Positions 2,512 through 56,975 of a DNA stretch of 64,000 nucleotides are shown here, piece by piece. Where the stretch lies: assembly GCA_021432655.1 (NCBI GenBank), contig MU271222.1, positions 41,519-105,518 of the forward strand. Direction: 5' to 3'. Source of the DNA: Atractiella rhizophila. Lineage: Eukaryota. The notes under the pieces were generated by a model. The model searched no databases, was not told the origin of the DNA, and saw only the letters and a list, made by a program, of their open reading frames with translations. Each line of letters starts with the position of its first letter. The first letter of the stretch is position 1. Made by a program: the position numbers and the translations under genes.

Positions 2512-4500
2512 CTGAAGTGGAGGATCAATCCCTATGACTCCTAGTATGGAGCAAAGTTGTGTGCAGGATTCCATTCATTGTAATTCATAACATCAATATT
2601 TGAGGTCAGCGTTGCCATTCAAAGGGTTAAGAGCTCAAGAGACCTAAAGTTCATGTATTTGACTTCGCTCTTGACTACACTTGTCTGGCAGAAGTACATA
2701 CATGCACACATGCCGCTCAAAGACGATGTTTCAAGATGCCGCCAGACTAAGGAATAGCGTCATAAATGAGACACCCTATACTCCTTGTACGGATCCCTCG
2801 CCAGCACTCCCTCACTTCCTGTTGACCAAATAAAGCTTTAAACAAACTAGGTCATCTTTGCACCAAACGATGAGTTGCTATAATGATATCAATCCACCAG
2901 ATCACTCAGGTTGAAGAGGGACCTTGCTTGAACAGTAAGAATACGCAATCACTCCAAGTCGCTCGGAGTGCCAGTACTCAGTTTCCAATGAATATTGTCA
3001 CGTTTGAGCAAGCTATCACAGAGGCATCCCGTTCGTGTCTATAATTCAGCTTTACAAGCATAAATGTCCATGCACATCAGTTTGACATATCACAAATCAA
3101 TTTTCAATTTTAGGAACAACAAGAAATTTAGAAAGTACCATTGCCCAATCCTCAAACGGAACTTTCAACGCACACATTTTACCACAGACGCAGTTTACCC
3201 ATTATCAAAGTTCCACCCACGTTCCACTTTCGTCACTCCTCAACTCTGCTGTTCCCGGCGCCAAGCTCGTCACAGTGCGACAATCCCCTTTCGACCAACG
3301 AGAATAGAAGCTGGTTCGTCCGATTCGTAGTCGTGAGATTCTGGTGATGTTCGTTGTTGTTTGTGTTTGTGTGAATGACCAGCCAAGATGCAATCCCAGC
3401 TTGCTTTTCCGAACTCCTTCTCTTCACAGTAAGACTGAGCGAACAGCCATTAGAAACGGAGACGGGAGGGGATAAATCGGTTGAATTGAGCTGAGATTTG
3501 CCCATTATAACGTCTTGGGATTGGGACAACACTGGACAACACAGTCCGTGGGTTGGATGGAAGGTGACGTCGGTCAGACGGTATGGTTTATTCCTATGGA
3601 TGCAGTGGAACGGTACAGATTTCGTGTCAGTGATCATGATTTGTGCAGCTTAGACAAGGAGCTCAGAAGAAGCTGGAAAAACACCTTCCTGTCGAATCTT
3701 CTAAAAACTGACTCCCTTGACATTTTTCTTCTCGTACCGTATTGGGAGGCAAGAGGGGAGTGCATTGCGTTTCCCTCTCGTCAGTAACTCCCCGAGAAAT
3801 CGCAAAGCAGATATGTGAATTGTTCCTTCTCCCCGAAATCAGTCCGATTTATGTGCTGTGCGACGTTTTAAAGTCAGAGAGGCAAGCAACGGGACTCAAC
3901 ATCCTGGTGCCTAATCCTATACCAACTTCCTCCGCACTGAATATGTGCACCACCGCACCATCTATAAGCGTGATCATACTTGAAGTTATGCTTCGTTTTA
4001 TTTTTCTAGGCTGAGATTGTGAGGGAAGGTCGAGATAGCTGACTGATAACTCACCTGAAGTCAAGGACCATTTGACCATTTGCATATTCTCGAGCGCTTC
4101 ACTTTCCCTTGCGTGTACATTGCAATTGTGTGATAAGGACGCCATTACAGTTACAGCTGTGCTCACCGTTCCACAACTATCGCGAACGTCTCAGAGTTGT
4201 AAAATTAGATGTACAAGAAGATTTGTGGTTGTTCGCATGCGAAAAGACAAACAATCAGTGATTTTCAGCGTTGTTTGTTACATTACATTGGTACATGTAG
4301 TGTGGAGGTAAACCGTGTGCGTCTGGCTGTCTGATGCTTGCCACTTGCGCGTCCTCAACGAAGTACGCGTCCCTGATCAACAACATTTCATAATCATTAC
4401 GCGTCCTGCTGCGAATCACTACACGGTTATTTATGTTGCTTTCCCACCATCTATACCATCATACGGCCTTCGACAGGTCAGGAGTAGATAGAAACTCAAA

Positions 4501-5540
4501 ATGGACGCCCTTGTCTCTCGCTTCTCATCCTCCAGTAAGGTGGAATGTAACTTTCCTGAAGATGGGCAGTATGCTTTACCCGTAGGGAAGAATATGCAAA
4601 TACTTTCCCCTCTATTTAATGTACCAAATGTTCCTGACGTGAGTCCAGAAATCTTTTCAATTGTCAGATGGCTGATTGATACATTAGCCTTCAACATGGC
4701 TCGCTACACATACCAGCAATGAAGCTCCAGATGCGAAGGTCAAAATCAAGCACGGTACCACGACACTCGCCTTCATTTACCAGGGAGGCATCATCGTATG
4801 CGTTGACAGTCGTGCTACAATGGGATCATTCATCGGCAAGACTCCTTACATTCTTTGGTTCTAGTTCAGAAAAGGTTGCAGGTAGCGGAACAGTCAAGAA
4901 AGTTATGGAGATAAATCCTTATCTGCTGGGAACAATAGCTGGAACAGCTGCGGATTGCCAATACTGGCTTCAGCAACTGTCGGTCCAGTGTAGGTTGTAC
5001 GAGCTTAGGAACAAGGAGAGAATCAGCGTCAGCGCCGCCTCGAAATATTTCGCGAACCTCGTCTATAGTTATAAAGGGATGGGTCTTTCTATGGTTTGTC
5101 CCAAGTTCTTATCTGTGTCACTTCTAATGGAGGTGTAGGGAACCATGCTCTGTGGGTATGATAGTTGTGGACCTCACATCTACTATGTCGATTCCGATGG
5201 TGCAAGGATGAAGGGAAATCTCTTCTCAGTAGGCAGCGGAAGCACCTTCGCGTATGGCGTCTTGGATCAGGGATACAATTTCGACATGACGGACGAAGAA
5301 GCTATAGACCTCGCGAAGAGAAGCATTTACGGTGCTTCCCATCGTGATGCCTACAGTGGGAACTCGGTCAACGTTTACCACATGCAGAAAGATGGGTGGA
5401 AATTCTTGGGTGAGCATACACACCCTCTTCCTATCAAACAGGTCACTGAAGTATGTCGAGCAGGCAATTCAGAGTTCGATCAGTTAACTTACGAAGAGGG
5501 TTGGGGATACCAGCAAAGGACTAACCAGTCTGTTGATTGA
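4501..5540 (+). CDS. PRE2: 20S proteasome beta5 subunit (PRE2/PSMB5 family), divergent
   Basis: Propeptide ending KHG|TTTLAF (Thr1 at 4757), DSRAT, KKV (Lys33), [34 protein letters not shown]; four introns. Confidence 0.96.
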
Positions 5541-7593
5541 AAGAAGAAGCGTTCAATAGTTTCGAAAGGTGTTGCCCACGCAGCTAGTGAGTGCATTTTT
5601 TTATGGAGTTCAATTTATCAACAACATAACCGGCGCAGAACGCATGAGAAGAAACCAACAGGCTGCAATACCTTTCCCTACGATCAACTTTATCCCGCTA
5701 CTCCTTCTCCTTCCAGCCTCGTTCGTCCTGTCATTGAGTTAACTACGTGTAAATTACTGCACAATTCTGCGCAATGATGATTAGCATGTCATGCAACAGG
5801 TCATGATGGATACATTCCTCCCTTTAGTGCCTCCTCTGCCTCAAATTCCCTCACTGTTTTGATCTCTGCCTGTCAATGGGAACAACCATAGATATCATCG
5901 ATCATATACTAACAACATAAGTTCGAGTGAAAATGGTGAAAATGCATAAAGAGTGTACAGGGAAGTACTACGATATCCGTACGCGTACGTCCTAGTTCGA
6001 AGCAGTACACCGACACACAAAGTAAACACTCTGATTCTCGATTCACTTCCATTGACCTACTTTTATTGCAGGTTATTCACTCGAAAACGTTCGTTCTACG
6101 TGCTCTTACCACAATATAAAACATCTCAGTTGGATTAATTCATCAAGTGCGACGCTTCCCCTGGTGGGAAGGAAGTTAGTTTCGTGACTTCCGCAAGTGT
6201 CCTGGCATTTTTCAGCCCGTGAATTCCGCTGTGTAAGCGATAATACTTGCACTGAGCTCTGCAGCGCGAAAGGGGTAAATTATGTGGACTTTTGATCGAG
6301 ATTCAGAAGTACCCTAGCTAAGCTTTGCTCTTTCCATCGTTGGATTTCCAGGAGTTGGAGTTGGAGGATAGAGGACTTGATTAGGACCGAAACTCCTCCT
6401 CTCAGTCCGTTCAAAGGTGGTTAAATAACTGGTAGTGTTTATCAGTAATGTAATTGCGTCCTGTCCTGCTCCTTTGACACTTTTGTTTCATTTTCTTTCT
6501 CGAGAGGGCATTTTTTGACGATGCCTCTATCCCTCCTCCCAAACGACCTCACTGCAGCAAGGTCAACGGAACCGTAGAATAGCAACAGGAGCATTGCATT
6601 CGATCCATCCATCATTCTGACCTACGTTAATCAGCATCAGGTTCAATCGCGACTTCATGGCCAGCAACGAGCACCGCCAGGTTTTTCTCGACGGCGACGA
6701 CAGGGTGGTGAAAATCGGCGTTCATTCCAACTTGGATTTACGTGTTCAGTCAGTGTTGCAGTGCCGTCTCGATTTGCCAGACGGCACAAGCGATCAGCTT
6801 GAATGACAATGAACAAACTTACACGGGCGATTGTGCGTTAGCAAAGTTTGTACTGTTCTTATCTGGCATGGGAGTCCTGAAGAACTGTTGGGGATACAAG
6901 GATCTTTGATTCCGGAAAGATCCTTTCCTAATTTTCTTGTCTTTCTCTGTTCAATTCGATCGCGGGTTTGGGATGCCTTCTGCCTTCTGCGCGCACCTGC
7001 CTGGATTTCTGGACAGGTATCGTCAGATCCCCAAGTCGGATCGAGTTGACGGGCGAACATATTGTGCATCAGCTGCGAAGACCGCAGCGAGGGCTTCGCA
7101 CCCTTTCCATCGCATCGAGTTTATCGACGCTGGAATTTAGAAAGCCCATCAGGGAATGATCTGGATTCAGTGTGAAGAAGGTGCCGAGTTGGCTCGCTTC
7201 CTTATTTCGTGGGCCTAATGGAGAAGATGCTCGTGCCTTGTTCGCTCCCTTTCCCTTTCAGCTGCCTTGGCTTGTTCACCATCTGTACCTTGCCTACCAG
7301 TTCGGCGGCCTAGCAATGCTTCCGTTGTTGGCTTCCGAATTGCATCGCTCGTGATAATTCGCACACGTGTCTTCCCCATCTTCGTAGCTCGTTGGCATGA
7401 AACAGCCAACCCGTTTGGTAATCTCATGCGTTTGAGCCAGTTTGTCGGATGCACTTTTGCTTTCTTTCATGTTCGATCGAGTGTTTCGATCAACAATTAT
7501 AAAAGAGTCTTCTCATCCCTTCCGTCTCCATCAGAGCACGAATAATCCTTTGATCGCCACCAATTCTTTCACATTCTTGCATTCTCAATAAAC

Positions 7594-8869: not shown

Positions 8870-11067
8870 TTACCCTTCTCCCAAACCAGTCAACACAGTC
8901 CAAACCCGCTCATTCCACGTCTTTTCCATCCTGTCCATTCCTATCTCTATCCATCCATCCGCTCCGTGCAGCGTACTGCTTCTCTTCCCCAACCGCAACA
9001 CAACGCCGCCATTCGGGTTCTTCCCAACTGTGCGAGGGACGACATCGCCTTCCTCTGCTGAGATGATGATGGATACGGATGTGGGAGTAGAGGTGGGAGG
9101 TGGAGTATTGTTGAGGTCGACGAGTTCGACTCGAGCTTCGGAAGCAGAGAGATTGGGAGGTGGGACGCGAAGGGTAGGAAGGAGATGTTGAGACGAGAAA
9201 GCAGGGTCGCAATCGTAAACGAATACCTTCTTGATGCCCGCCATTTCAATCGCGACAAGGGCATCGCTATATGCTTTCCCGGAGCATTTCGTGATTAGCG
9301 CGACTGTACGAGACGTTACCGCATTGATGGGAGATAAGTTCTCGGTGATGGTTTTGGAGAGGCAGGAGGCGAAAACATTGTGCGATGTCGATGACGACGA
9401 GGTCGGCAAGCGAGTGATGACGTCGCAGAGGGAAGTGGAGCTGGATGCATCCGATGCAGGAGGCGGGAAGAAATTTAACACTGCACCTGCGAAGGAGGAA
9501 GAGGAAAGAGCAGTTTGGATGGTTTCGACGTCTGAACATTCGAACCGGATGTGAAGGTTGAGTGAATCCGCCTTTTCCTGTAACTCTCTTCGCCATTCTA
9601 GACTATGTCCAGACAAGAAAACCGTGCGCATCACTTTCAAGCCAGCAAGAAAGAGAGATTCTTGGATCTGTGAGAAAGTGAGATCTCCATCGTCATCGAA
9701 TATTGATGATGCGGAAATTGGAGTGAGAAGGGTGTTGAAAGTGCGAGACAGCTGTCCTATCCTCTCAGTATTATAAGCGATGACAGGTTTGTGTCCGTCC
9801 ATCCCCATCCCCATACCAACATCATTAAGAGAACCCCTCAACCGTTCCAGGTCTAAATTATCTTCCATCCGGTGAGCTTTCCTGACCAACCGAAGGATCG
9901 AGATATCAAATTGTTGAGCTAAGTCGAGACTTGGTTGGACGTTTTTAATACACCACGGAGTCGTCTGGTTCAAATCGATATCCGTCCCGATAAGATGTGT
10001 AGTTCCCCTCGAGCGAGCCAGCCTCTCCAGCTCGTCCGCTCCCAGTCTCAGCTCGACATCAACAAACTCGCAGCCTATCTCAACTCCAAGGCGTAGGAGA
10101 TCAAGGTATCTCTCCTTCCAAGTGGCGTCCTTCATGAAATCTGGAAAGCTCCCTCCTCCCAACACTGTCCGGACCGTAAAGATGATAGGCAACGTAGTGA
10201 CGCTCCGTATCTTGGATATAGATCGGGCCACAAAATCCCTACCCTTCTCTCTCTCTTCCGATGACAACAGTTCACTCTTCACCAGGTCTATTCGCACTTC
10301 AATCACATTCGCACCCGTCGTGTCCTCTTTCCGCAGCGTAGTGGGATCCTCCTCACAAAGTTGCAGCGCGTATGTTCTTCGCTCAGAATCTGATGCGTAA
10401 GAGAGAAAATCAAGCCGTTGGGAGTGAGGAGATGACGGTGTGGACTGTAGGATGAAATGGAGAAAACGCAGAAAGGAGGTTTCAAGCGGCTTGAGAACCA
10501 TGGAGGGTGGGGTTTGAGGGGATCGCAGTGCAGTGAGGCTGAAATAGGTATGTGTGGAGCAGGCAGAGAAGAAGGGAGTGCGTCTTTCCCAAACTGATCG
10601 GATATGTTCGTCCCACAACGGTCTATCGCCGGCATTTGTTAACGACCGACCAACCAACAAGACGCAACTAGAAGGACCAACCTGGTCTTTTCGCTTACTA
10701 AATACTTGACAACTTCTCCTTCGTCCCTCCGCACGTGGATAACCGTCCCACCACTCCTCCCAAATTCCTTCAACAACTCTCTATTCCTCTCTCTCTCTAC
10801 GACCCCACCTCCGCAAGCAACTACGTATCCTGTTCCACATTTGTCCAATAGACCCTCCAAGATTCCGGTCTCTTCATCCCTAAACCGTTCCCATCCATTC
10901 TCAGCAACGTATGCTGAGATAGTCGTCTTATTCTTAGAGGAGAACAATGCATCCGCGTCAATGAACGGTCGAGAGAGGGAAGTGGCAGCGATCAACCCAA
11001 GCGTGGTCTTACCCACTCCCCTCATTCCGATGAGGATCAAGCTGCGAGGTGAGGTGGGCGCGTCCAT
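8870..11067 (-). CDS. QutR/qa-1S-like repressor: shikimate kinase + type I dehydroquinase-like + degenerate shikimate dehydrogenase domains
   Basis: LIGMRGVGKTT P-loop, CGGGVVE, IEVRIDL, PIIFTVRT..GG.F, FVDVEL, GQLSR..N.LLTP, ENLSPINA. One intron near 10625-10681. No DHQ synthase or EPSP synthase domains. Confidence 0.85.
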
Positions 11068-12672
11068 TCCAGATCTACGCTCTATATATCGAAGCCTATG
11101 GGAGTGCAAATCAGTGGAATTATTGGTTGTGCACAAGAATCAAGATTCGAAGAACCACGGTGGAAATGAAGGCCCGCCAGTATTGAGGTTCGCACGCGAG
11201 GAATTCTGCTGCTTTAGGGATTAGGCAAACTATTCATGGTCCTACTTCTATTCCGAGACATAACGGAACCGTCGTCACACGGAATTGAATAACGACAAGG
11301 GTGATGAATCCCAAGCATTTCATGATGCTTAGGATAAAAGAAGCTCAAGATCTCGCAAGCAATTCCTTTAATGTGGTAAGAATTTGATGGGAAAAGTGAA
11401 TGGAAAGAATCTGGACAGTTTACACCACTCAGGACTCAGGCAGTCAGGTTAAACAAGAAATAACAATATGCTTTCGCGCGAGTTGTCAAAAACGAAGCAG
11501 AAATCAAATCTCACACCTTGCGCGGTGATGATCCTGATGAAGGGACTCGGAGGGTACACAAGGACGATAAACTGAATTGATTTGCAAGGGCATAAGGTGC
11601 TTCAAGAAATCTTGTCGATAATACACACAAATTTTAAGACAATGACATCCACTTGACAGCAGTTACTGAAAATTGTGATAACACATGATATTGAACCGTG
11701 AAATGGCACTGAAGCAGAAGTTCGCACATCCACATCCAGTGTTCAAGTTGACAGTACAAGAAGAGAAAAAGCTGCTCACAATTCACTTGTCAATTGATGC
11801 CAAGCTACGTCCACTTCAGCCCTTCTTCCACAGCAAATACAACACGCAGATGTACCATAAGCTGTCACGTGCCAAATGGTTTATATCAGGACTAGACTAC
11901 GGGGAAGACGTCTCCTCCAAGAACTCTGAGGGAGAGGAGTGATTGATGAAAATGACCGAGCGTGGAAACTCAAGGTACCTACGTAAACGTGAGTGTATGA
12001 TGCGGTGCAGCTGAAATATTTGTCCGTCTGGGAAAAGTCAGGCCGACAGAATGCTGCTTGTTCCCTTTCTTTTGAGAATTTTGACTTTGTGGGCTACTCT
12101 GTTTCAGTGCTTCCAGTACTTGGGCAAGTAGTTTGCAGTAATAGTCCTCAATGTTCATTGATATTCTTTTCCTTTAGAGGAGAACTTTGAGGTTGTCAAG
12201 GTTGCAGACTAGCTCAAAGACACCCATCTCATCTTTCCAACCCAAGTCTTTCTTATGATCCTTCTCACGCCTACCTCGTAGCCGCGCCGAGGCGGCTTGT
12301 GATCGAAATCCATTACTGCGAACCAATGCGTTGTGAACGATAGCAGCGGCGAAGTCACCCAAAATTAGGTCTCCCGCTCCCCAAGTTTCTGAACTCGATG
12401 TCCGTAAAGACGAAGAAGTGCTCCTTCAAAGTCCTTCAACCTGGATTGGTTGATGCCTCGGTGCGAGTCAAGATAGGGGCAACAAATTACGGGAAGCTCC
12501 ATCGTTCCATTTTCATCTTGTCCATAGATAGTCCCATGACCGTGGCTGGAACTTCTGTGCCAAATTGGGACAGCCAAGATGAGCAGCAGCAACAGCAGCA
12601 TATAAATATGACGCGCTCTTGAGTCGTCCTGTTTCCCCTTTTCACTCCTCCCTTCTTTCGCACCGCTTTACC

Positions 12673-15507: not shown

Positions 15508-16263
15508 ATGCAGCCATCAGAGGCGAGCAACAACTTGGAGTTCTCCCCTGAAGATTGGTCACAGGAAGAACTTGCCAATGCTTTGAGTAACTTCAACACT
15601 AACTTCAACACACTTCAGTTCACCAATGGTTTGCCACCCGAGGCATTCCAAGCCGCTCCGAATGCTACTAGTTCCTATGTGGATAGCATTTTTTCCGGTC
15701 CGCCTTTTATTGTTATCTCGTGAAGTTACCGTCGAGTATTGACAAACTGTTGATCCTGTCAGATCCCGCTTCTGATCCTTCATCCGAAGTCTCTTCGAAC
15801 TTCATGAATACGCTTGCTGAAGGTGAAATAGAACCGGAGGAAGCTACGAGAAAGGTAGGCAGGCGTGGGCGGTAATCGACATTCAGCATTCAATGAGATC
15901 ACCTGCAGGAACGACCCGATGGCAGTGGAGAGTACCGATTTCCGAATGGTGAGACAAGAGAGGAAAGGATGCAGAAGAACAGGATATCAGCTGCAAAGTC
16001 GAGGAAGAAGAGGAAGGCCTGGATCGACGGTCTGAGTGAGAGTGCGTTCTTTGATGCTGCTACTCTGCCTCACCTTCTGAACCTTGTTGTCTGTCATTCG
16101 CGTAGAGGTGGACGAGCTTCAAACTGAGAACATCAAACTTAAGACAATCATCGAAGGTCTTAAGCAGGAAAAGGATGTGATGAACCGCGACCTATCGGTC
16201 TGCAACCACCAGAGTCACATTTGTGCTGATTGCCTCAAGACCACCTCGAATGAGAATATCTGA
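15508..16263 (+). CDS. ATF/CREB-like bZIP transcription factor, paralog 1
   Basis: Basic region ERMQKNRISAAKSRKKRKAWI, zipper L..KVDELQTENIKLKT, tail CNHQSHICADC; stop at 16261-16263. Confidence 0.88.
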
Positions 16264-19170: not shown

Positions 19171-20525
19171 TTACGCCGTCTCCCCCTTCCCTTCCACGCC
19201 GAGAAACCTCCTCATCTCCTCCTTCACATGCTCCTCTTCCCCCTCTTCCATCCGTTCGAATCTCACCAAGTCCTCCTCCACACCGACCCTCGTCAGTCCC
19301 TTCGGAGCATTCCCAAACGGTCGGTCATAGAGCGTGGAGTCGGACATGGAGAGGGAAGCGGATTGGGAGGCGAGTTTGGTGAAGAGCGTTGGGTTGTTGC
19401 GGTACATCCTATAGGCAGGGCAGGGGTCAGTTGTTGAACGGACATGGGAAAAACGACAGAATTTTCATAACGATGTAGAGCAATAAAGTCCGCTTCCAGA
19501 GAAGCAATTAAGTTTGAAAAAGTTCCTCTAGCTCAGTCTACGACATCCTGAGCAGCAATTCAAGCCCACCGAGGACTACCGGGCTTCCTGCTCCTCCAGA
19601 AAGCCGTCAACCAAAGAAAACATAGATCCAATGCGGCGTGACCTGATCAACGTCCGATAGCTTCCCCATTGCTGGAGCAAGCATATTTTGTATGCAAACC
19701 GTGATAAAAATGAAGAGCAAGTCGGAGAAGTCATCATGAAGAGCCGACGCACCGATATGCCTCCAAATTCGCGCATCCCCTTTCAACCAGTCCCTCCAGT
19801 CCGTTTCTCTTAAAACTCGCCTTCAAAAAGTGCAGGATATGGAACAAAAAATCCTTCCTCGGTCTCCATCGTGGGAACCTGCTCTCAAGGTTAAACCTCC
19901 CAGTAGAAGGGTCAATGAGAGGATGGAAGACGTTCGTAAGGGAAGTTAAAGTGGGAAGAACTGTTGGGGATGGGTACGATGATGGGATGGAGAGCGTGAA
20001 GCGGAGCAGGGAAGGTGAGTAGTACCCTCTGTGTAAGAAGAGGATGATGTGCCAGACTGCGACAGGAAGTGGTTTGTGAGTTGCAGAATTGAAACGCTGG
20101 AAGGGATGATGGCGAACACTTACCGTTGATATTCCCTTTTTCCGGCATAACATACATGCCTAGAGGGAGATGTTGAGGTTTGTCCAGAGCAGCACTTTCC
20201 ATGAATATTCCATCAGCCTACTTCATGACAGATTGCAGAGAGGAAAAGAACAGCTTTTAAAACGTGTGCAAGTAAACATTTATGGACTCTATCCATTTAT
20301 TCGTAGTAACAATGGATGTTCAAGCCACGAGAAGTCAACTACTCAGCCTAACGACAGCATTAAAGCTTTTGCATTTCACATCTTCTATTACGCGACATGC
20401 ATGAACCGACACAATAGAGACAAGTTGGGATCATTCACGTAGAAGTTCCATCCAACGAAGCAGAATTATCTGAACAAAGCAAAAGAAGAGACATACAACT
20501 CCATCATCACTTCTTGTCTACTCAT
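19171..20525 (-). CDS. AKTIP/FTS-like inactive ubiquitin-conjugating (UEV) protein
   Basis: Spliced MSRQEVMMEFAALDKPQHLPLGMYVMP...WHIILFLHRGYY...VFHPLID..G.FNL (no catalytic Cys)...NLEAYRMYRNN. Introns at 20195-20496, ~20067-20123 and 19409-19752. The start could extend upstream. Confidence 0.82.
19530..19742 (-). ncRNA. Candidate intronic box C/D snoRNA
   Basis: Inside the 344-bp intron: C box ATGATGA (19737-19731) and D box CTGA (19536-19533), with CTCT/AGAG flanks. Target not identified. Confidence 0.45.
20262..20441 (-). ncRNA. Candidate intronic H/ACA snoRNA
   Basis: Inside the 302-bp intron: stem TACGTGA/TCGCGTA, then H box ATAGAA (20388-20383), then a second hairpin closed by GCAA/TTGC, ACA (20267-20265), 3 nt and a T-run. 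Confidence 0.42.
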
Positions 20526-27025: not shown

Positions 27026-27970
27026 ATGCGTTCTCTGCCTAGTTTAGCCTTGCTCAGTTGTTGCGCTCTCACCATCGCTCAAACCACCGCTGATCCGCCT
27101 TATAAATGGGGGTACTTGGCATTTCCCAACTTTACAGGCTTGGTGCGACTCTTTCCTCCTTCCCCTACATTCTTCACAATTTTAAAACCCGGCGCAGGAT
27201 ATCTTCGGTCCACTTGAATTCTACGGCATAGGCGCATTTAGCACCCGTCTTGATATGGCAATCATTGCTTCGGATCTCTCCTTTGTGCCTTCGACAGCGA
27301 AGACGAAGTCTGGACACCCCACTGCTGGCGTCATGCCTACGTCTACGTTCAATGATCCCAAATCGTATGCCATAGATGTCTTGATCATCCCTGGCGGTGC
27401 AGGAAGCAGAGTCGCAATTAAAGACCAAATGTTGTTGGACTATGTTAGAGAAGTAGGGAAGACGGCAAAATATGTTCTAAGTACGTGTACTGGTGCACAA
27501 ATTTTAGGTAACGCTGGATTGGTACGCGCCACTCATGTCACCTCTACAACAAAAGCATAACATTCTTGGGAGGCAGCTCGATGGAAAGCGCGCGACGACA
27601 AACAAGTTCTCCTGGCGTGAAATGGTACAGAGCTGTCCAGATACAATTGAATGGGTTCGTCCATAGAATTGCGTTTATTATTATCTGTTACAATTCGACT
27701 CAGGTCCCGAAAGCACGTTGGGTGGTAGATGGAAATATATGGACATCATCAGGGGTGACTGGTACGTCACTTTCCTCCAAAATTTTTGCTGAAAGAAGCT
27801 GAACCGCTTCAACTCAGCTGGAATGGATATGATCCACGCCCTTTATCAGCCAAGTGATGCAGAATGAAACACTGGCTGATCGAGCGGCAAACATCATTGA
27901 ATATGAGGTGCATCGAGATCCAAGCTGGGACCCTTTCAGCGGGGTGTGGAATGCTACTTTCCCATTTTGA
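27026..27970 (+). CDS. Secreted DJ-1/PfpI family protein (isocyanide hydratase-like subfamily)
   Basis: Signal peptide MRSLPSLALLSCCALTIA, FPNFTGLDIFGP, DVLIIPGG, STCTGA (nucleophile Cys), LDGKRATTNK, ARWVVDGNIWTSSGVTAGMD, IEYE...WDPF. TATAAA near 26959. Confidence 0.9.
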
Positions 27971-31635: not shown

Positions 31636-34600
31636 TCAGCGAGGGGTGTGCAAAGCTGAGCCGTGAGCATTTTGGCTTGCTATCGGAGGCTGCATTACCA
31701 TTATTGGAGGGACAATAATCGATGACCTGGTAGGCGTCTTGCTTCCCTTTTCGCGCCGTGACTTTATGACACCTTTCCAGCGATCCTTAAGCTTCTTGTA
31801 CAGTGTCTCTTCTGCTTCCTCATCCATTCCATCTGCCATGCTAAGAGCTTCTCGCTCTTCAGCAAGAGTATTAATACAGACCCCCAATGTGCGAAGTGAG
31901 CGATAACTGGCCGTTGCGCCTTTGGCCGCTTGCGTCGAGAGAGCAATGGAGGAAAGTTGACGGAGTGTGTAAAGAATGACGGATATCTGGTTGAGAGAGA
32001 TCGGAAGCGGAAGCTCCTCTGGCAATACGATGACTTGCGAAGTCGAAGCCCCTTCAGGAGTTGTTCTGGCCTTCCCTTTGCCATTTGACTTCTTGTTGGA
32101 AGGGATTATGAAATCTGGAGTAAATGCGGTCTGATTTGAGGGGAGAATCTTGATGATTAAACGGACGACACCGAGGCCCATCTTGTCCTTTCGGAACTCT
32201 AAGACCATCGCAGCTCCTATATGGCATGAGGTTGGGTTAAAAGAAAATGGGGAAAATCCACCTGCATGACCACTTTCCTCAGCCTGGATATCCTGCTGAC
32301 CAGCAGTGAACTTACTCTCACCGTGCCTAAAAAATGTCATCCTGATATTTACACCATAAGAGAGGAGGAACACGCACCACATGAGAAACCTGAGGAGGCT
32401 TGACCAATTATCAGCCTCGATAGCCCAAGTGCTCAACTCTCTTTCGCTCTTATTCGATAGTTCCAATGTCCTTGGGAACTGACCGTCCTCTAAGGATGCT
32501 GGATTCAACTCAGTTCCAGCTGTATCTCCCCCTGGCCTTCCGAAGCGGACACCGGTGGCGAAGACAGCGTTCATCGTGCGTTCTCCGTTGGGTAATTCAG
32601 TGTTCTCGAGAGATTGTGGGTTGACCATCGGCGGCGATGGAACAGGTATCTGGTTCAACAGTACCGTAGAGGGTATCGTGGGTGTCGTTGAACGCGAAGG
32701 GGGGTCAGGTTGAAAGGCTGTTGGTTGCTGTGGTCGCGGCGCTGAAAACGTCGGCGATGGTATAGCAGTTGAACCATCAAGAAAGGAAGAACGTCGTGAA
32801 GTTGTAGGCTCTGTGACTTCTTCAATAGTGTACATAGAAAAGTTGTCGTGAGGTATTTCGGCGTGGACGAAGTCACCCTCTCCTTCCTGTGTAGATGTGG
32901 GAGAAGATGGGGCGGGATTGGGGTCATCTGAATTTGAGGAACCTGAACTGTTGCGAGAGTTCGAAGGCTGCGTGTTTGTTTGAGTGGCACGAAAGGGAGA
33001 AGAGGGTTGATCACCAACAGGTGAAGCTCGGGCACTGGGAGACCTAATCAACGTTGTGGTAGATGATACAAGGCTTGGGGAGCCTGGACGTCTAGCAGTA
33101 TCCCACTGGTCCCTATTAAAGCTGGACTTTCGCCGTAAAGAAGAAGGTGACGTTGGGGATTCACGGCGTTCTTCCGGCTTTTCCGAAGGCGATTGGGTGG
33201 AGGTCGGAGAAGTTCGTATCAGCGGCGGTTTTGGAGGAGGTAACTTGTCAGATGGACTTGTCAGATCGGATTTGAGGTCGTTAAGAGGAGAGCTGGAACG
33301 CATGGCAGGGAGCAGGATGAGAGGTGAGGACCAAGCTGCCCCGTTCTCTCCGTGGGATGACTTGGGTCCGTCAATCCGCTCCACAGCCGAAGTCTCCTTC
33401 TCTAACCTCGCTCTCCGTAACCGCTCCTCTTCTCTACTTAGTCGTAGAGCTAATTCAAACATCTCCTCTTCCTGCCGCGCAACATCGACAGGACTGAAAC
33501 CATTGTCTAGCGGAGCTGCGCCAGGTGGTAACCAGCCATGTTGACCTCCTGGATTTGCCCACAGATGACCAGACTTCTCATTTCCAGCTCCGAAGAGAGT
33601 TGGTGTCCCCAACAACTGGGAATAGAAGTTAGGTTGAGCAGATAGAACATAAGTCAGCGGTTGATCTGTTTCCGCACGCGGGGGTGAATGTTGAGGATTT
33701 GTATCGTCTTCTTCCTGCATGCCCCAAGAAATGTCAGCCATAACTATTCCAGTGCCAGTTTATATGATGAGGAATTGGCCACAGTTGCGAATAATGGCAT
33801 TCTCATGACCGTGGGGGAGATGGTGCAGCGTGTATTCCAGAGAAAAAGGCTGGTCAACGCCGTTCAAAGCAACCAAAAGATGTTGACGTCCGACTCGTAA
33901 GAGATTGACGTACATTCTTCTGTCTATCCTGTCCTCCTTTCCTACTGTTCTCTGGGAAATGCCGTGTGTCCCGTTCCTCGACTGCAGCTGGCTCCTCTCT
34001 CTCCGGCCGTTGCCTCTCCCTCTTCTTCGTGAACGCAGTTTGCTCCCCTCTCAGCTGACCGACCTGGTCCGCAGGTTCTCCCAGAGTTGCTTTAAATAAT
34101 CCCAGCTTCGTCAACAGTCGTGAAACCTCATGAGTAGACAGCGCCGTCGATTCGTTTGCTCCTGCAGAAGCCAAAGGAGTATCAACACCGTTATTCGTTG
34201 ACTGGCTACTGGAGGACGAAGCCCTGCGTCTATGACGTCGCTTAAAGAGGGAGGCCAATCCGTTGAAATCTACATCTCTGTCTGATGGCACATTAACGGT
34301 TGGAGATGGTGGTGTTACAGAGACGGCTAGGAAGGGAGGCGACGGTGAGACCTTCCAAAAGGAGCTGATGGAATGCCGCAGTCGCGGCTTAGAGAGAGAG
34401 TCTTTGAGGCGGCTCACTGGGCCGACGAGGAGCGGAAGCGCTGAACTGGACTTTGGGCGCGGAAGCGTGCTCACAGGTGCACTTGTGGTTGGGTTCGACA
34501 GTCGGCTGGAGCTCGACGGGTAGGAGAAAGTTGTGGCTGTTGTAGGGATGGTAGTGACGGAAGTGGGAGGAGCGGAGGTGAGAGGGAATGCGAAGAAGTC

Positions 34601-34780
34601 GCTCGATGTCGAAGGAGATGCAGCATGTGTCCCGACCGAATTTAGTGAGGCAGAGCGCTTCCTATTCTGAGAATGGCTTTGGATGGATGGAGAGGGCGAC
34701 AGGTGATAGTAAAAGAACTCTTCTGTATCAGCCGAGATAATGCTATAGTGGGACCTTCTGTCAGCGTTAGTGGTGGCCAT
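31636..34780 (-). CDS. Large Ser/Pro-rich protein with a ubiquitin-interacting motif and a folded C-terminal region (may be two genes)
   Basis: Long ORFs 34780-33914 and 33741-31636; UIM-like EEEMFELALRLSREEE. Joining them needs introns with weak donors, and the 3' end is uncertain. Confidence 0.6.
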
Positions 34781-36193
34781 TGGGCTAATCGAAGGTTCAG
34801 AATCTGGGGACGCCTTCAATGGAGATTCGAAGACTGTATCTTCCCCTCAAAAGATAAGTAACAGAGACGAAGCACATCGCCCTTCGAAGCTATCTAAGTA
34901 TCCCCACGGTATTTTCGTCCCTCCAAGGACATTGGGAATCCGCCGAAGTCATGCCATCCCTTTTGCCGAGCGAAGGAGGCGGGCTACAAGAGCAACAGAA
35001 GCAACAGACCGAAAAAGACATGAGCATGAGAATGTAGTCAATCTCAACTCAGGGCAAGTAGGCGAGACTCAAAATGCTAACAATCATTCGCATTGGGTCA
35101 AGTAACGCTTCAGCGTCCTCAGCCAGGAGATTCGCATACATATTGGATCACACATTCCTGTTTTGCAAATCAAAGTCCGACGGATTCCGACTAGTTTGTT
35201 TATTATCCATCCTTGTCAATTCAGCTTCTGCCATTGTTTTTGGCAGTTAACCAAAGTTAATGGATGATCTCTGCGCTGCCAGGTCACAGAGGCATCTCTT
35301 CCCACAAAAAGTTGCTGAAGGAATATTGGCAATTGGTCATCTTTCGATGGATTCTTGTTGATAATTCGAACAGAAAGGAATAAAGACAATCTGAACAAAA
35401 TGCGATATAAGTTATAGATAGGTTTTGGAGAGGATTGATTTTTTGAACATAGCTTTTGGAGAGTGGAAGGAACTTGGAGGTTGTGCGCTGCAGTTGCTCT
35501 TCAAGCTGTGCGCGAACATCGAAGCGTCAAATGCTCAAACAACTTCAATGAAAGAATCAAAGAACAGGCTGTAGTCGAGGCAGCTGTACTATTGAATAAC
35601 ACTGAGGCTGCACAGTCCACTGGCACTTTCCGGTCTGGTTGTTTTACAGACCCTGGTCAACAAGCTATATAGCATTTCTCGATCTGATTGCTACGGTAAA
35701 GGAAATCATTTATGTTACACCTCTGAAAAAATTTAATTGGATGTTCGGATGACCAGAAAAAGGTGCACAGTGCCAGTGTCCGTGTCCACAAGGCTCTATT
35801 GTTGACGAAGCAGTTCGGTCGGACGCCATCAAAATAGCAGGTCAACTTCGGTGACGCCCAAATACAACTTCACTGGAATGATACAGCAGTATCAAGTTTG
35901 GAGAGCAGGAATAGTTGATCGAAGATCAAAGAGAGGGTAGGGGGAAAGGGTCGGGAGGGAGAAAGAGACCCAGCCCATTAGAATTTTTAGGGCTAGGTGG
36001 AGGGAATTGTTCCATGTGACTCAGCTCGTAACAAGCTTGATGCAATGTTTAGGCAAAGTTCATACGATAGGCAGGTATAGTGATATAAAACACGACGGGT
36101 ACAAGAGCGTAAAGATATAATCCTCACACAGGATTGACAACAAATCACCCAAGGACGAAGGCATCAACGGAAAACAACTTGAACATCAACCCT

Positions 36194-55562: not shown

Positions 55563-56975
55563 GATTCAACGTCACTGCCGCACTTCCCGTTTCTGGGACT
55601 CCCAACAGAACTTCAAATACACATCATCGCTTCTCTCCGAACCGATCGTTCTCCGCCCATTTCATCACCTTCACCATCATCAACTTTCCTTGCTCTCAGT
55701 CTTGTCTCCAAGCATGTGAGAGAGATTACTGTGCCGTTCCTTTTCCACGAAGTTCGCATCCCCAAATCACTGGAGGATGAAGACGAGAATATCGGGCAGC
55801 CTAAGCCAATAACTTCTGTTTTGCCTACTGATTGCGTTCTCGCAGCCAAATCTTTGTCAGTTCGGTTGCGCGTCAGGCATCTGACTCGACCTGGATATCT
55901 GCATCATCAAATATCTGAGCTGCTTTCTTTTCCCGGCAGCAAGTTTGAATCCGTCAGGCTTCTTGTCGTGGAAGAACTAGTCAATGTGCTCAATGAGTAC
56001 CAATCGAAATCGATCGACGAAGCAGTGACTCCAATTTTTTCCATACTTCTAACAAGGCCTGCGATACAAACGTTAGATCTGGAGATGGGAGGAGGGCCGT
56101 ATCAGACTGTTGCCACATTCTTTGCTAAGCGACTTGCAACGTTGGACTTGAACCGTTCTATCGATACACTCGCCTTAAGAGGACCCTACACAGAGGGGGC
56201 AGATCTCATCACGACTTATTTTCCAGCTTTAAAACCTCTCCACCTGGATTCTTCACATTTTCCACAATCCGATTTTGGATCTAAACTTCCTATCAGTCGA
56301 GTGTTGCCATCAATACGAAACTTGGCGGTTGTCCTTAACCCTTTTGACTCGGAAGAGAACCGATGGGGTCTACGAATCATCAATATGATACATTTACAGG
56401 GTATACTAGATGCGTTGGCAGGGTCTCTCGAGTTCCTTTCCATCCGTCAAATCCTCAATTTTGGAGAATTGGACGCTATACTGGACTCGAAACCGTTAAG
56501 GAAGTTGAAAACTCTAGAGCTGATCGATGCACCATGGCTCAACCAAGGGTACAGCTATCCCCGAAGCGAGTTTCCACCTCTGGACCTCATCCTGCAACAC
56601 TTCTCGTCATCTTCGGCAGAGACTCTCTTCTTGGATCAGCTTCCTACGCTTGGTCCACCATACCCCTTGGACTGTCCACACCTCCCCGACACCTTCGATA
56701 AGACATTCCAACCCCGAAATGAAGCTCTCCGTTTCGAAAGAAAGTTTGCTCTGCTCCGTCACATCCGGTCACGGTTTTGGGAATACGTCTTACATGCTTT
56801 GAAGCATCAGAAGATGAGTGGGGGATGGACCGAGCTTAGGAGAGTGCGGTTGGGACCTTATGCTAGTAGGATGGTTTTGACGGATGGAAGGAGTAAGACG
56901 TTCTTGGAGAATTTGGAGGAAGTTGGAGTGATGGTTTCCGTTTATCAGCAGTCTGAGATGGCGCTCAAGATGTAG
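55563..56975 (+). CDS. F-box / LRR-like protein, paralog 1 (first exon not resolved)
   Basis: FPFLGLPTELQIHII...LALSLVSKHVR F-box; LRR-like LxxL segments; splice acceptor at 55562. Confidence 0.8.
   Translation, partial: DSTSLPHFPFLGLPTELQIHIIASLRTDRSPPISSPSPSSTFLALSLVSKHVREITVPFLFHEVRIPKSLEDEDENIGQPKPITSVLPTDCVLAAKSLSVRLRVRHLTRPGYLHHQISELLSFPGSKFESVRLLVVEELVNVLNEYQSKSIDEAVTPIFSILLTRPAIQTLDLEMGGGPYQTVATFFAKRLATLDLNRSIDTLALRGPYTEGADLITTYFPALKPLHLDSSHFPQSDFGSKLPISRVLPSIRNLAVVLNPFDSEENRWGLRIINMIHLQGILDALAGSLEFLSIRQILNFGELDAILDSKPLRKLKTLELIDAPWLNQGYSYPRSEFPPLDLILQHFSSSSAETLFLDQLPTLGPPYPLDCPHLPDTFDKTFQPRNEALRFERKFALLRHIRSRFWEYVLHALKHQKMSGGWTELRRVRLGPYASRMVLTDGRSKTFLENLEEVGVMVSVYQQSEMALKM

Follow-up and report, generated by a model that had tools for sequence, protein, structure and literature searches.

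Vertebrate immunity is known to employ alternative catalytic subunits of the proteasome, and producers of proteasome inhibitors are known to have resistant extra subunits. The vertebrate beta5i (PSMB8) and beta5t (PSMB11) are beta5 paralogs that replace beta5, changing the S1 to S3 pockets; beta5i carries Cys or Ser at residue 48 and differs at residue 27 as well (PMC11819894). Among the producers, SalI of Salinispora tropica is an extra beta subunit with an altered residue 45 that protects against the inhibitor (M45F and A49V; PMC5721123), and Aspergillus nidulans uses InpE, a proteasome subunit kept beside the housekeeping copy, for resistance to fellutamide B (PMC10734572). The initial annotation of the locus described here had drawn on both producers as precedents for self-resistance by an extra subunit. 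For salinosporamide this holds, with the change at residue 45, whereas the fellutamide gene inpE is a homolog of beta6, not beta5 (PMC10734572). It had also named M45I as a change of inhibitor-resistant cells, which is borne out by the literature (PMC8297691, PMC6766463, PMC10198959, PMC5721123). In yeast, M45I is reported to confer 21.4-fold resistance, and the same change appeared in THP-1 and KBM7 cells (PMC8297691). It was found in a myeloma patient, and patient-derived beta5 mutants are described as having reduced catalytic activity (PMC6766463). In Plasmodium, the substitution is reported to give 15-18-fold resistance to boronates and 8-26-fold resistance to epoxyketones, as confirmed by CRISPR editing (PMC10198959). 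In the stretch of 64,000 nucleotides of DNA from the root-associated fungus Atractiella rhizophila that was analyzed (the window), we find a beta5 gene that naturally encodes Ile45 and may give inhibitor resistance or a distinct proteasome.

This PRE2-type gene lies at 4501-5540 on the forward strand and comprises five exons with 846 nt of coding sequence for a product of 281 aa. Over 281 aa, its translation shows 100% identity to the protein P0001, for which NCBI gives the name 'beta 5 subunit of the 20S proteasome [Atractiella rhizophila]', and the NCBI gene model is the same. Its structure is as follows:

4501-4638, 4688-4835, 4882-5093, 5139-5409 and 5464-5540 (+): exons, from the spliced translation
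4639-4687 (+): intron 1, 49 nt, GT..AG; the X3 contig joins 4638 to 4688
4836-4881 (+): intron 2, 46 nt, GC..AG, splitting the Gly27 codon; the X3 contig skips 46 nt
5094-5138 (+): intron 3, 45 nt, GT..AG; spliced translation and X3 contig
5410-5463 (+): intron 4, 54 nt, GT..AG; spliced translation and X3 contig
5538-5540 (+): stop codon, from the spliced translation
5587-5638 (+): 52-nt GT..AG intron of the 3' untranslated region; in the X3 contig, 5586 is followed directly by 5639

A public contig of 976 nt from sequencing run X3 contains exact joins over all four coding introns and the 3' untranslated intron, so that a joined, transcript-like form of the gene exists; as run X3 is of unrecorded kind, this contig might be DNA of a processed copy instead of RNA. 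The reading of the chain with Ile45 and Thr48 requires the removal of a GC-AG intron between residues 26 and 28, which is exactly what the X3 contig removes. The join at this intron has two letters of ambiguity, and GC..AG is the sole near-canonical placement. A retrocopy origin of the window gene itself was ruled out by the presence of its four coding introns.

On the strength of its sequence, the gene can be assigned to the proteasome beta5 catalytic subunit family (PF00227). Matches to this profile occur on exons 2, 3 and 4 (E-values of 1e-05, 1.3e-14 and 1.6e-22, respectively) and jointly span profile positions 1-188 of 189. The best solved relative is yeast Pre2 (E-value of 1.3e-95), with which the protein is collinear except for one single-residue gap. 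Among the matches listed to solved structures, all 60 are beta type-5, type-8 or beta5-named chains, and the named database matches are beta5/PRE2. The parts needed for maturation and catalysis are present:

4501-4756 (+): propeptide, 69 aa, interrupted by the intron at 4639-4687 and ending in His(-2) Gly(-1); spliced translation
4751-4753 (+): His(-2), by codon reading
4754-4756 (+): Gly(-1), by codon reading
4757-4759 (+): Thr1, catalytic nucleophile (mature chain); matches yeast Pre2 Thr1 in the alignment
4805-4807 (+): Asp17, catalytic, intact; codon reading
4899-4901 (+): Lys33, catalytic, intact; codon reading
4941-4943 (+): Gly47, by codon reading and alignment with yeast Pre2
5235-5357 (+): Ser130, Asp167 and Ser170 (direct count), aligned with yeast Pre2

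By comparison with yeast Pre2, Thr1, Asp17, Lys33, Gly47 and the Ser/Asp/Ser network are thus all kept. We take the three residues of this network to be those conventionally numbered Ser129, Asp166 and Ser169. The junction between propeptide and Thr1 reads [11 protein letters not shown]; its His(-2) and Gly(-1) are described as beta5 propeptide features (PMC4792962).

The substrate channel departs from the family. The pocket stretch reads [10 protein letters not shown], and the canonical form with Met45 and Gly48 (GTMAGGAADC) is absent, a departure within the family that leaves beta5 membership standing. The altered positions are:

4820-4822 (+): Met22 in place of Ala (Ala in 146 of 156 rows); codon reading and alignment
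4835 and 4882-4883 (+): Gly27, codon split by intron 2; codon reading
4905-4907 (+): Met35, ATG (Ile in 150 of 156 rows); codon reading and alignment
4935-4937 (+): Ile45 (ATA) replacing Met45, the S1 pocket floor; codon reading and alignment
4944-4946 (+): Thr48 (ACA) replacing Gly48 on the S2/S4 ridge; codon reading and alignment
4968-4982 (+): Leu56 Gln57 Gln58 Leu59 Ser60 (Leu56 at 4968-4970); codon reading and alignment

Codon reading and the identical NCBI model confirm the residues that had been listed for this chain at the outset, namely Asp17, Met22, Gly27, Lys33, Ile45 (ATA), Thr48 (ACA) and Leu56. Met35 and the grouped departures at residues 56-60 were absent from that list; at the latter, the family has E, T, Y, (L), G as its consensus (96-99% conservation) and the protein departs at four of the five. 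Several of these positions have a described role: residue 45 is given as a major determinant of S1 (PMC4792962), residue 35 has a role next to Met45 (PMC11452676), residue 48 is treated as an S2/S4 pocket position (PMC11819894), position 22 contacts ligands near S3 (PMC10721928, PMC11452676), and support for both 22 and 27 as S3 positions is found in PMC11819894, PMC10721928 and PMC11452676. T21, A49, A50, C52 and C63 are unaltered, and I45 is the only member of the validated resistance set that is present.

How rare these residues are was counted over 156 regular beta5 rows out of 177 fetched, after exclusion of 14 without the T1 motif and seven irregular models. Both M45 and G48 occur in 143 of the 156, while L45 is present in eight, T48 in nine, M22 in five and G27 in five. 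I45 occurs once, in the variant itself, and in none of the other 155 rows, so the combination of I45 and T48 is not shared across the clade. The initial annotation had regarded both residues as unusual. This stands for I45, unique among the 156 rows, but not for T48, which recurs in beta5 proteins of Mycena, Irpex and Auricularia, including two from Mycena floridula. Met22 and Gly27 weigh less than had been proposed, since they are common outside Basidiomycota (M22 in 23 and G27 in 48 of 93 beta5-family rows, a sample across eukaryotes drawn from a search of 50%-identity representatives). The same search did not find a closer relative. T48, L45, M22 and G27 are also found in other basidiomycete beta5 proteins, some of them possibly the main copy of their species, so that an ordinary housekeeping role would be consistent with such changes.

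The proposal that the gene might be a second beta5 is supported by a canonical beta5 listed under the same species name in the protein database (P0018), with A22, A27, I35, M45 and G48. It lies on another contig, of 217,381 bases versus 140,263 bases for the contig of the variant, which makes the variant a second copy; the count of two beta5 genes in Atractiella rhizophila is that of the protein database. The two proteins are 76% identical and are sisters within Basidiomycota in a fungal beta5 phylogeny of the kind that the initial annotation had called for (SH-aLRT of 98, and 96 with the five pocket columns masked). Their end branches measure 1.07 for the variant versus 0.057 for the canonical copy, or 0.70 versus 0.056 with the pocket columns masked, a 12-19 times longer branch for the variant. 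Horizontal origin and orthology to PSMB8 or PSMB11 were both ruled out by this sister relationship to the species' own beta5. JGI metagenome contigs were searched with a degenerate pattern for genes encoding [13 protein letters not shown], the window's own letters included, with zero matches, and this pattern search yielded neither environmental orthologs nor added left flank.

Differences between the two Atractiella copies fall on 19 of 139 conserved columns versus 32 of 73 variable columns (Fisher p = 2.7e-6), which shows constraint. At the 139 conserved columns, the variant departs at 20 versus three in the canonical copy. These departures are concentrated in the channel: the variant is off consensus at five of 12 channel positions named in the literature versus 12 of the remaining 124 conserved columns (odds ratio of 6.7, p = 0.008; with the polymorphic residue 35 left out, four of 12, p = 0.036), in a test that is partly post hoc because the position set was assembled after the sequence was seen. 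Variants among sequencing runs in the mature chain amount to eight synonymous and one non-synonymous (M35I). With its catalytic residues intact, its conserved columns avoided, its exact splice joins and this eight-to-one ratio, the second copy still looks functional.

How the unusual residues arose can be explained in several ways, one of which is that they are an artefact of contamination, chimeric assembly or faulty gene modeling. The reading does hinge on a non-canonical GC-AG intron, and Met35 is found in none of the runs X1, X3 and X5, which read ATT (Ile35) at 4905-4907 where the window assembly reads ATG; Met35 is hence either polymorphic or specific to this assembly. Against such an artefact, the gene is most closely related to the beta5 of its own species, the NCBI gene model is identical and all splice joints are confirmed by one contig. 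Moreover, when the runs were checked for ATG and GGA at the two decisive codons, 4935-4937 and 4944-4946 had the same letters as the window in all covering runs (X1, X3 and X5). This explanation is largely refuted, and its probability is close to nil. Another explanation holds that relaxed constraint is letting a redundant duplicate drift toward loss, with the pocket changes as tolerated noise. The very long branch, the 20 departures at conserved columns versus three in the canonical copy and the difference in residue 35 between assembly and runs would all speak for drift, and possibly degenerate second copies do occur in Mycena (P0341 with D47 and the irregular P0327). Yet, the frame is open, with all splice sites intact and no catalytic residue lost, the changes avoid conserved columns, synonymous variants predominate in the mature chain, and a spliced form exists. 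We consider drift toward loss improbable.

Two further explanations grant the gene a function. In one, it would be a producer's self-resistance gene in the manner of SalI and InpE, with biosynthetic genes outside the window or unlinked. An essential target has indeed been duplicated and bears a resistance-type residue, and only 4.5 kb of left flank falls within the window, on a contig of 140,263 bases. The neighbors encode DSBA-like, shikimate kinase/dehydroquinase, bZIP, DJ-1 and F-box proteins, OPT and MFS transporters, dehydrogenases and an M28 peptidase. No Pfam match to an NRPS, PKS, terpene synthase or other core enzyme was obtained in 245 of the 266 stop-to-stop frames of at least 75 aa in the 64-kb window, in agreement with the earlier remark that no biosynthetic cluster is visible nearby. 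Linkage to such a cluster is thus not supported. Of the hallmarks of SalI/InpE-type self-resistance, the extra copy and a substitution at a residue known to lower inhibitor binding (I45) are present, but a location in a cluster is not seen in the window. In addition, the available part of PMC8707610 names no proteasome inhibitor made by a basidiomycete, and a producer origin appears very improbable. The other explanation is a specialized isoform unrelated to inhibitors, which would serve a certain stage, tissue or stress with another cleavage pattern or other substrates, like vertebrate beta5i and beta5t. The same evidence for a functional paralog with a changed channel speaks for this reading, and position 48 differs in beta5i, too. 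Five unnamed beta5-family rows of the representative sample carry T45 together with T48; we take these to be beta5t-like. Pocket positions also change repeatedly in Basidiomycota, with at least six changes each at positions 45 and 48 in a tree of 68 rows. On the other hand, the most unusual residue, I45, is the exact change that inhibitor selection has produced in three kingdoms. An isoform of this kind is conceivable, albeit on the unlikely side.

The reading that we prefer, and to which we give about even chances, is that of a working alternative beta5: a fast-evolved duplicate, made at the DNA level in the Atractiella lineage, now under purifying selection and putatively inhibitor-tolerant. 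The housekeeping PRE2-type gene would have been duplicated within this lineage, after which the copy evolved quickly and came to be held by purifying selection. What 20S assembly and self-maturation demand is kept (the full propeptide, His(-2), Gly(-1), Thr1, Asp17, Lys33 and the Ser/Asp/Ser network). The substrate channel is remodeled at S1 (Ile45 and, in this assembly, Met35), at S2/S4 (Thr48) and at S3 (Met22 and Gly27). The variant subunit may then occupy the beta5 place in a share of the proteasomes. With the beta-branched Ile45, the S1 pocket is predicted to be stiffer and shallower than with the flexible Met45, which would lower the affinity for peptide-like covalent inhibitors with a bulky hydrophobic P1, such as boronates, epoxyketones and aldehydes, and would necessarily shift the cleavage preference. 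The most likely selected benefit would be a proteasome that keeps working despite inhibitors from soil or root microbes, i.e., target-duplication immunity in a non-producer. A wider generalization can be offered tentatively, and we rate it as rather unlikely: basidiomycetes may repeatedly evolve alternative proteasomes, with A22M, A27G, M45L/I and G48T recurring in independent beta5 duplications or lineages, the I45 copy of Atractiella being a stand-by catalytic subunit that provides a non-producing root fungus with immunity against the inhibitors of neighboring microbes. Basidiomycete examples of recurrent channel changes come from Atractiella, Mycena, Irpex, Flagelloscypha, Auricularia and Rhodosporidiobolus poonsookiae, the last of which has a pair of beta5 genes on one contig.

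Among the literature matches listed for fungal or basidiomycete beta5 duplication and self-resistance, none describes a fungal second catalytic beta5 with a remodeled pocket, and those listed for Atractiella rhizophila concern ecology or taxonomy by their titles. If the stand-by reading is true, the gene would be the first case of a eukaryotic catalytic isoform of the proteasome that tolerates inhibitors and has no tie to a biosynthetic cluster. If built into the 20S core, the variant would offer a natural experiment on the S1-S3 residues that set inhibitor sensitivity and cleavage preference, and it might serve as a marker for chemical warfare within the root microbiome. For resistance-guided genome mining, it would be a warning that a duplicated target need not mark a producer. 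If the variant behaves like the canonical copy, it would simply be a lineage-specific duplicate.

Set against the described systems, the window gene shares its fold family, subunit type, His(-2)/Gly(-1) propeptide and catalytic set with housekeeping beta5 subunits (yeast Pre2, human PSMB5). It differs from them in Ile45, Thr48, Met22, Gly27, Met35 (in this assembly) and the changed residues 56-60, and in being an extra copy with a longer branch beside a canonical one. The vertebrate beta5i and beta5t are likewise beta5 paralogs with changed pockets, but they are not orthologous to the window gene, and beta5i keeps Met45. SalI resembles it as an extra beta subunit altered at residue 45, yet is bacterial, is encoded inside the salinosporamide cluster and carries A49V, whereas the window copy retains A49 and has no cluster in the window. 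InpE provides the fungal parallel of an additional proteasome subunit beside the housekeeping copy, but it is a beta6 homolog instead of a catalytic beta5 and sits within an NRPS cluster (PMC10734572). The inhibitor-selected mutants of yeast, THP-1 and KBM7 cells, the myeloma patient and Plasmodium falciparum have the same substitution at the same position. Theirs are point mutations of the sole beta5 gene from the laboratory or the clinic, whereas in Atractiella a natural second gene has Ile45 fixed, along with further changes in the channel.

On sequence grounds, the variant beta5 gene of A. rhizophila is a real, expressed-looking and selectively maintained second copy in which the substrate channel is remodelled and one residue is a classical resistance change; its function is predicted. 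The gene (window 4501-5540, +) has five exons and encodes 281 amino acids, the same sequence as the database protein P0001 (NCBI name 'beta 5 subunit of the 20S proteasome [Atractiella rhizophila]'; contig of 140,263 bases). Its coding introns measure 49, 46, 45 and 54 nt, the second being of the GC..AG type, and three exons separately match PF00227 in Pfam. Yeast Pre2 is the best solved relative (E 1.3e-95), collinear save for one single-residue gap, and the Ser/Asp/Ser aligned with its catalytic network are all kept. Every tested defining beta5 feature is present, except the canonical Met45/Gly48 pocket. The chain and coordinates read in the initial annotation (T1, D17, M22, G27, K33, I45, T48 and L56) were recovered by spliced translation and are correct.

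Exons (spliced translation) and residues of the variant beta5, numbered from Thr1 of the mature chain
4501-4638, 4688-4835, 4882-5093, 5139-5409, 5464-5540, + strand: exons
4757-4759, + strand: Thr1, start of the mature chain, preceded by His(-2) Gly(-1)
4820-4822, + strand: Met22
4905-4907, + strand: Met35 (ATG)
4935-4937, + strand: Ile45 (ATA)
4944-4946, + strand: Thr48 (ACA), following Gly47
+ strand: Gly27, codon interrupted by the GC-AG intron
+ strand: Asp17 and Lys33, both present in the mature chain
+ strand: Leu56, in the mature chain

Four public sequencing runs were compared with window 4300-5800. At the codons of residues 45 and 48, runs X1, X3 and X5 all agree with the window, and the ATG/GGA reads against which the initial annotation had cautioned are found in none of them. 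X1 carries the intron-containing form across all of 4300-5800, and one 976-nt contig of X3, a run of unrecorded kind, has exact joins at all four coding introns and also splices out an intron of the 3'UTR (52 nt, GT..AG; 5587-5638). Its joint at intron 2 has two letters' play, the sole near-canonical placement being GC..AG. This joined contig is most simply a transcript, the alternative being a processed DNA copy; no listed run is recorded as RNA. It stops at 5768, where 36 loose letters resemble the window about 57 nt downstream; a second 3'UTR intron beyond 5768 is possible. Position 4907 is T in X1, X3 and X5, giving ATT and Ile35, the family norm, whereas the window has ATG; Met35 is therefore confined to the window assembly or allele. 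Since residue 35 packs against residue 45, Met35 amounts to a second change in S1, absent from the other sources. Across the runs, 8 of 9 variant sites in the mature chain are synonymous, and the propeptide variants divide into three synonymous and three non-synonymous ones. Over parts of the gene within 4480-4887, X1 has two contig versions of comparable depth, one (nearly) identical to the window and the other with 4-6 differences, mostly synonymous, which suggests two haplotypes or nuclei.

The supposition that the species has a second beta5 was borne out in the protein database by P0018, from the same named species and on a separate contig (217,381 bases), whose mature chain is canonical (A22, A27, I35, M45, G48). 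P0018 is also the closest relative of the window protein (76% identity; remaining database matches 52-69%). For the tree, 68 named, full-length rows of regular layout were picked by hand from 177 fetched; metagenome proteins without a name, fragments, gene models of irregular layout and fish fusion models were set aside. P0001 and P0018 group as sisters (SH-aLRT 98; end branches 1.07 versus 0.057), and remain so with the five pocket columns masked (96; 0.70 versus 0.056). Because they are sisters in both trees, the window beta5 is a lineage-specific duplicate, made at the DNA level, that evolved 12-19 times faster than P0018. Horizontal acquisition was rejected, the protein being the sister of its own species' beta5, as was a retrocopy origin, given the four introns.

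The changes are concentrated around the substrate channel. In 139 conserved columns, P0001 departs from the consensus 20 times and P0018 three times, all three in common with P0001; the other 17, found in P0001 but not in P0018, fall at 22, 25, 27, 35, 45, 48, 56, 57, 58, 60, 83, 101, 121, 147, 156, 162 and 191. Among twelve channel positions taken from paper passages (20, 21, 22, 27, 31, 35, 45, 47, 48, 49, 52 and 53), five are changed, compared with 12 in the remaining 124 conserved columns (odds ratio 6.7, p 0.008), or four without the polymorphic residue 35 (p 0.036). As this set was compiled after the sequence was seen, the enrichment is supportive rather than decisive. Several of these residues have precedents in passages of published work: in human beta5, Ile35 displaces Met45 in the direction of the active site, and Met35 is natural in Trichomonas beta5 (PMC11452676); S3 includes residue 27, and residue 48 sits between S2 and S4, where beta5i has Cys or Ser for Gly48, narrowing S2 (PMC11819894); Met22 is natural in Plasmodium beta5 and contacts an inhibitor (PMC10721928). 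The occurrence of M45I in proteasome-inhibitor-resistant cells, named in the initial annotation, is upheld by passages of three papers. M45I confers 21.4-fold bortezomib resistance in yeast and has emerged in THP-1 and KBM7 cells too (PMC8297691, Table 1). It was carried by a myeloma patient on bortezomib, drug binding being impaired and activity reduced in all four mutants (PMC6766463). In P. falciparum it raises resistance 15-18-fold for boronates and 8-26-fold for epoxyketones, as confirmed by CRISPR editing, and makes the parasites more sensitive to one vinyl sulfone (PMC10198959).

Of 156 regular rows, most of them from Basidiomycota, 143 have M at position 45, 8 have L and 4 have S, with I in P0001 only; at position 48, 143 have G, 9 have T and 4 have S; M22 and G27 each occur in 5 rows and M35 in 1. 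In the 93 regular rows of 145 diverse representatives, the main counts are M 75, L 7, T 5 and I 3 at position 45 and G 76, T 6, S 5 and C 4 at position 48, with M22 (23 rows) and G27 (48 rows) being common. I45 and T48 occur together only in P0001 across both sets, and a degenerate DNA pattern for the pair had no match in JGI metagenome contigs. A sole beta5 with clade-wide I45/T48, considered in the initial annotation, is thus not what is found, as canonical P0018 exists. In Mycena, T48 is widespread, whether accompanied by L45 or not, and it is also present in Irpex lacteus and Auricularia subglabra; many of the Mycena proteins (P0042, P0099, P0112, P0113, P0153, P0159, P0165, P0324, P0326 and P0328) have T48, most of these with L45. 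M. albidolilacea, M. pura and M. filopes have a canonical beta5, two M. floridula entries carry T48, and in one of these Asp replaces Gly47, and M. leptocephala has two beta5 entries with the same longest contig. The M22 and G27 pair recurs in Flagelloscypha, Coniophora and one Peniophora model. In Rhodosporidiobolus poonsookiae a canonical beta5 is accompanied by a faster-evolving copy with M22, L45 and G49 (branches 0.027 versus 0.35, about 13 times); this independent pair (P0081/P0148; locus tags 008299 and 008302) lies three genes apart, apparently on one contig, as the longest contig listed for each is 167,670. In Rhodotorula toruloides, whose canonical entry is P0044, the irregular row P0139 has Ala at the expected catalytic Asp17 plus L45, and may be an inactive or mis-modelled paralog. 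The masked 68-row tree requires at least 10, 7, 6 and 6 changes at positions 22, 27, 45 and 48, counts that may be inflated as the tree has poor resolution, with 30 of 65 inner branches drawn open. From these surveys and counts, the channel positions are recurrent targets of change in Basidiomycota, and in some species the altered form may be the principal beta5.

A Pfam scan covered 245 of the 266 stop-to-stop frames of at least 75 aa in the 64-kb window, the 21 omitted being beta5 frames and frames overlapping longer ones.

Neighbouring features in the window (Pfam)
1349-2041: DSBA-like gene
6932-7156: weak galactokinase signature
8873-11139, - strand: shikimate kinase (PF01202) and type I dehydroquinase (PF01487), one gene region
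15897-16124: bZIP
19737-20159: E2-like fragment
27186-27557: DJ-1/PfpI
about 37.2-38.9 kb: OPT transporter
42.7 and 44.2-44.9 kb: dehydrogenases
48.6-52.8 kb: MFS/TRI12-type transporters
58.1 kb: M28 peptidase
within the window: F-box/LRR proteins

EPSP synthase, dehydroquinate synthase and shikimate dehydrogenase had no match in frames neighbouring 8873-11139 (-), which is therefore unlike a full five-domain fungal ARO1. The long open frames 31639-33759 (-, 707 aa), 33857-34846 (-, 330 aa) and 55563-56972 (+, 470 aa) match no Pfam family at E <=1 beyond chance level.

We propose that the variant beta5 would slot into the 20S core as a drop-in replacement of its canonical counterpart. Ile45 would make the S1 floor stiffer and shallower, Thr48 would render the S2/S4 ridge narrower and more polar, and Met22 with Gly27 would reshape S3; peptide-like covalent inhibitors with a bulky hydrophobic P1 would then bind more weakly, and cleavage preference would shift. 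A functional altered-pocket paralog is very likely; that its selected benefit is inhibitor tolerance is about half as probable. The main rival is a specialised proteasome isoform without relation to inhibitors. A producer self-resistance gene is disfavoured, since the 245 frames scanned contain no NRPS, PKS, terpene synthase or other core biosynthetic domain; this agrees, within the window, with the earlier statement that no biosynthetic cluster is nearby, although the left flank of the gene spans 4.5 kb and a cluster further left is possible. Neutral drift of a duplicate is likewise disfavoured by the constraint data. The mature chains of P0001 and P0018 differ at 51 of 212 positions, and the differences shun conserved columns, i.e., those with 90% or more conservation across 133 other beta5 proteins (a set of 134, with P0018 included, in the departure count): 19 of 139 are affected, against 32 of the 73 variable columns (Fisher p 2.7e-6). 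This bias, the intact catalytic residues and splice sites, the contig with joined exons and the 8:1 ratio of synonymous to non-synonymous variants jointly point to purifying selection acting on the variant now. An artefact is essentially excluded.

Among the papers listed by our literature searches, we found no description of a second catalytic beta5 in fungi, although the supplements of PMC10734572 could list beta-subunit duplicates, nor of the proteasome genes of Atractiella. The altered-pocket paralog is proposed to work like SalI and InpE, the cluster-encoded resistance subunits of salinosporamide and fellutamide B producers, yet it is not a member of this group, as no cluster is visible. 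According to passages of the respective papers, SalI is bacterial and carries M45F and A49V (PMC5721123), and InpE is a beta6 homolog (PMC10734572), whereas the window gene is a fungal beta5 with I45. Nor does it belong with vertebrate beta5i and beta5t, to which it is not orthologous.
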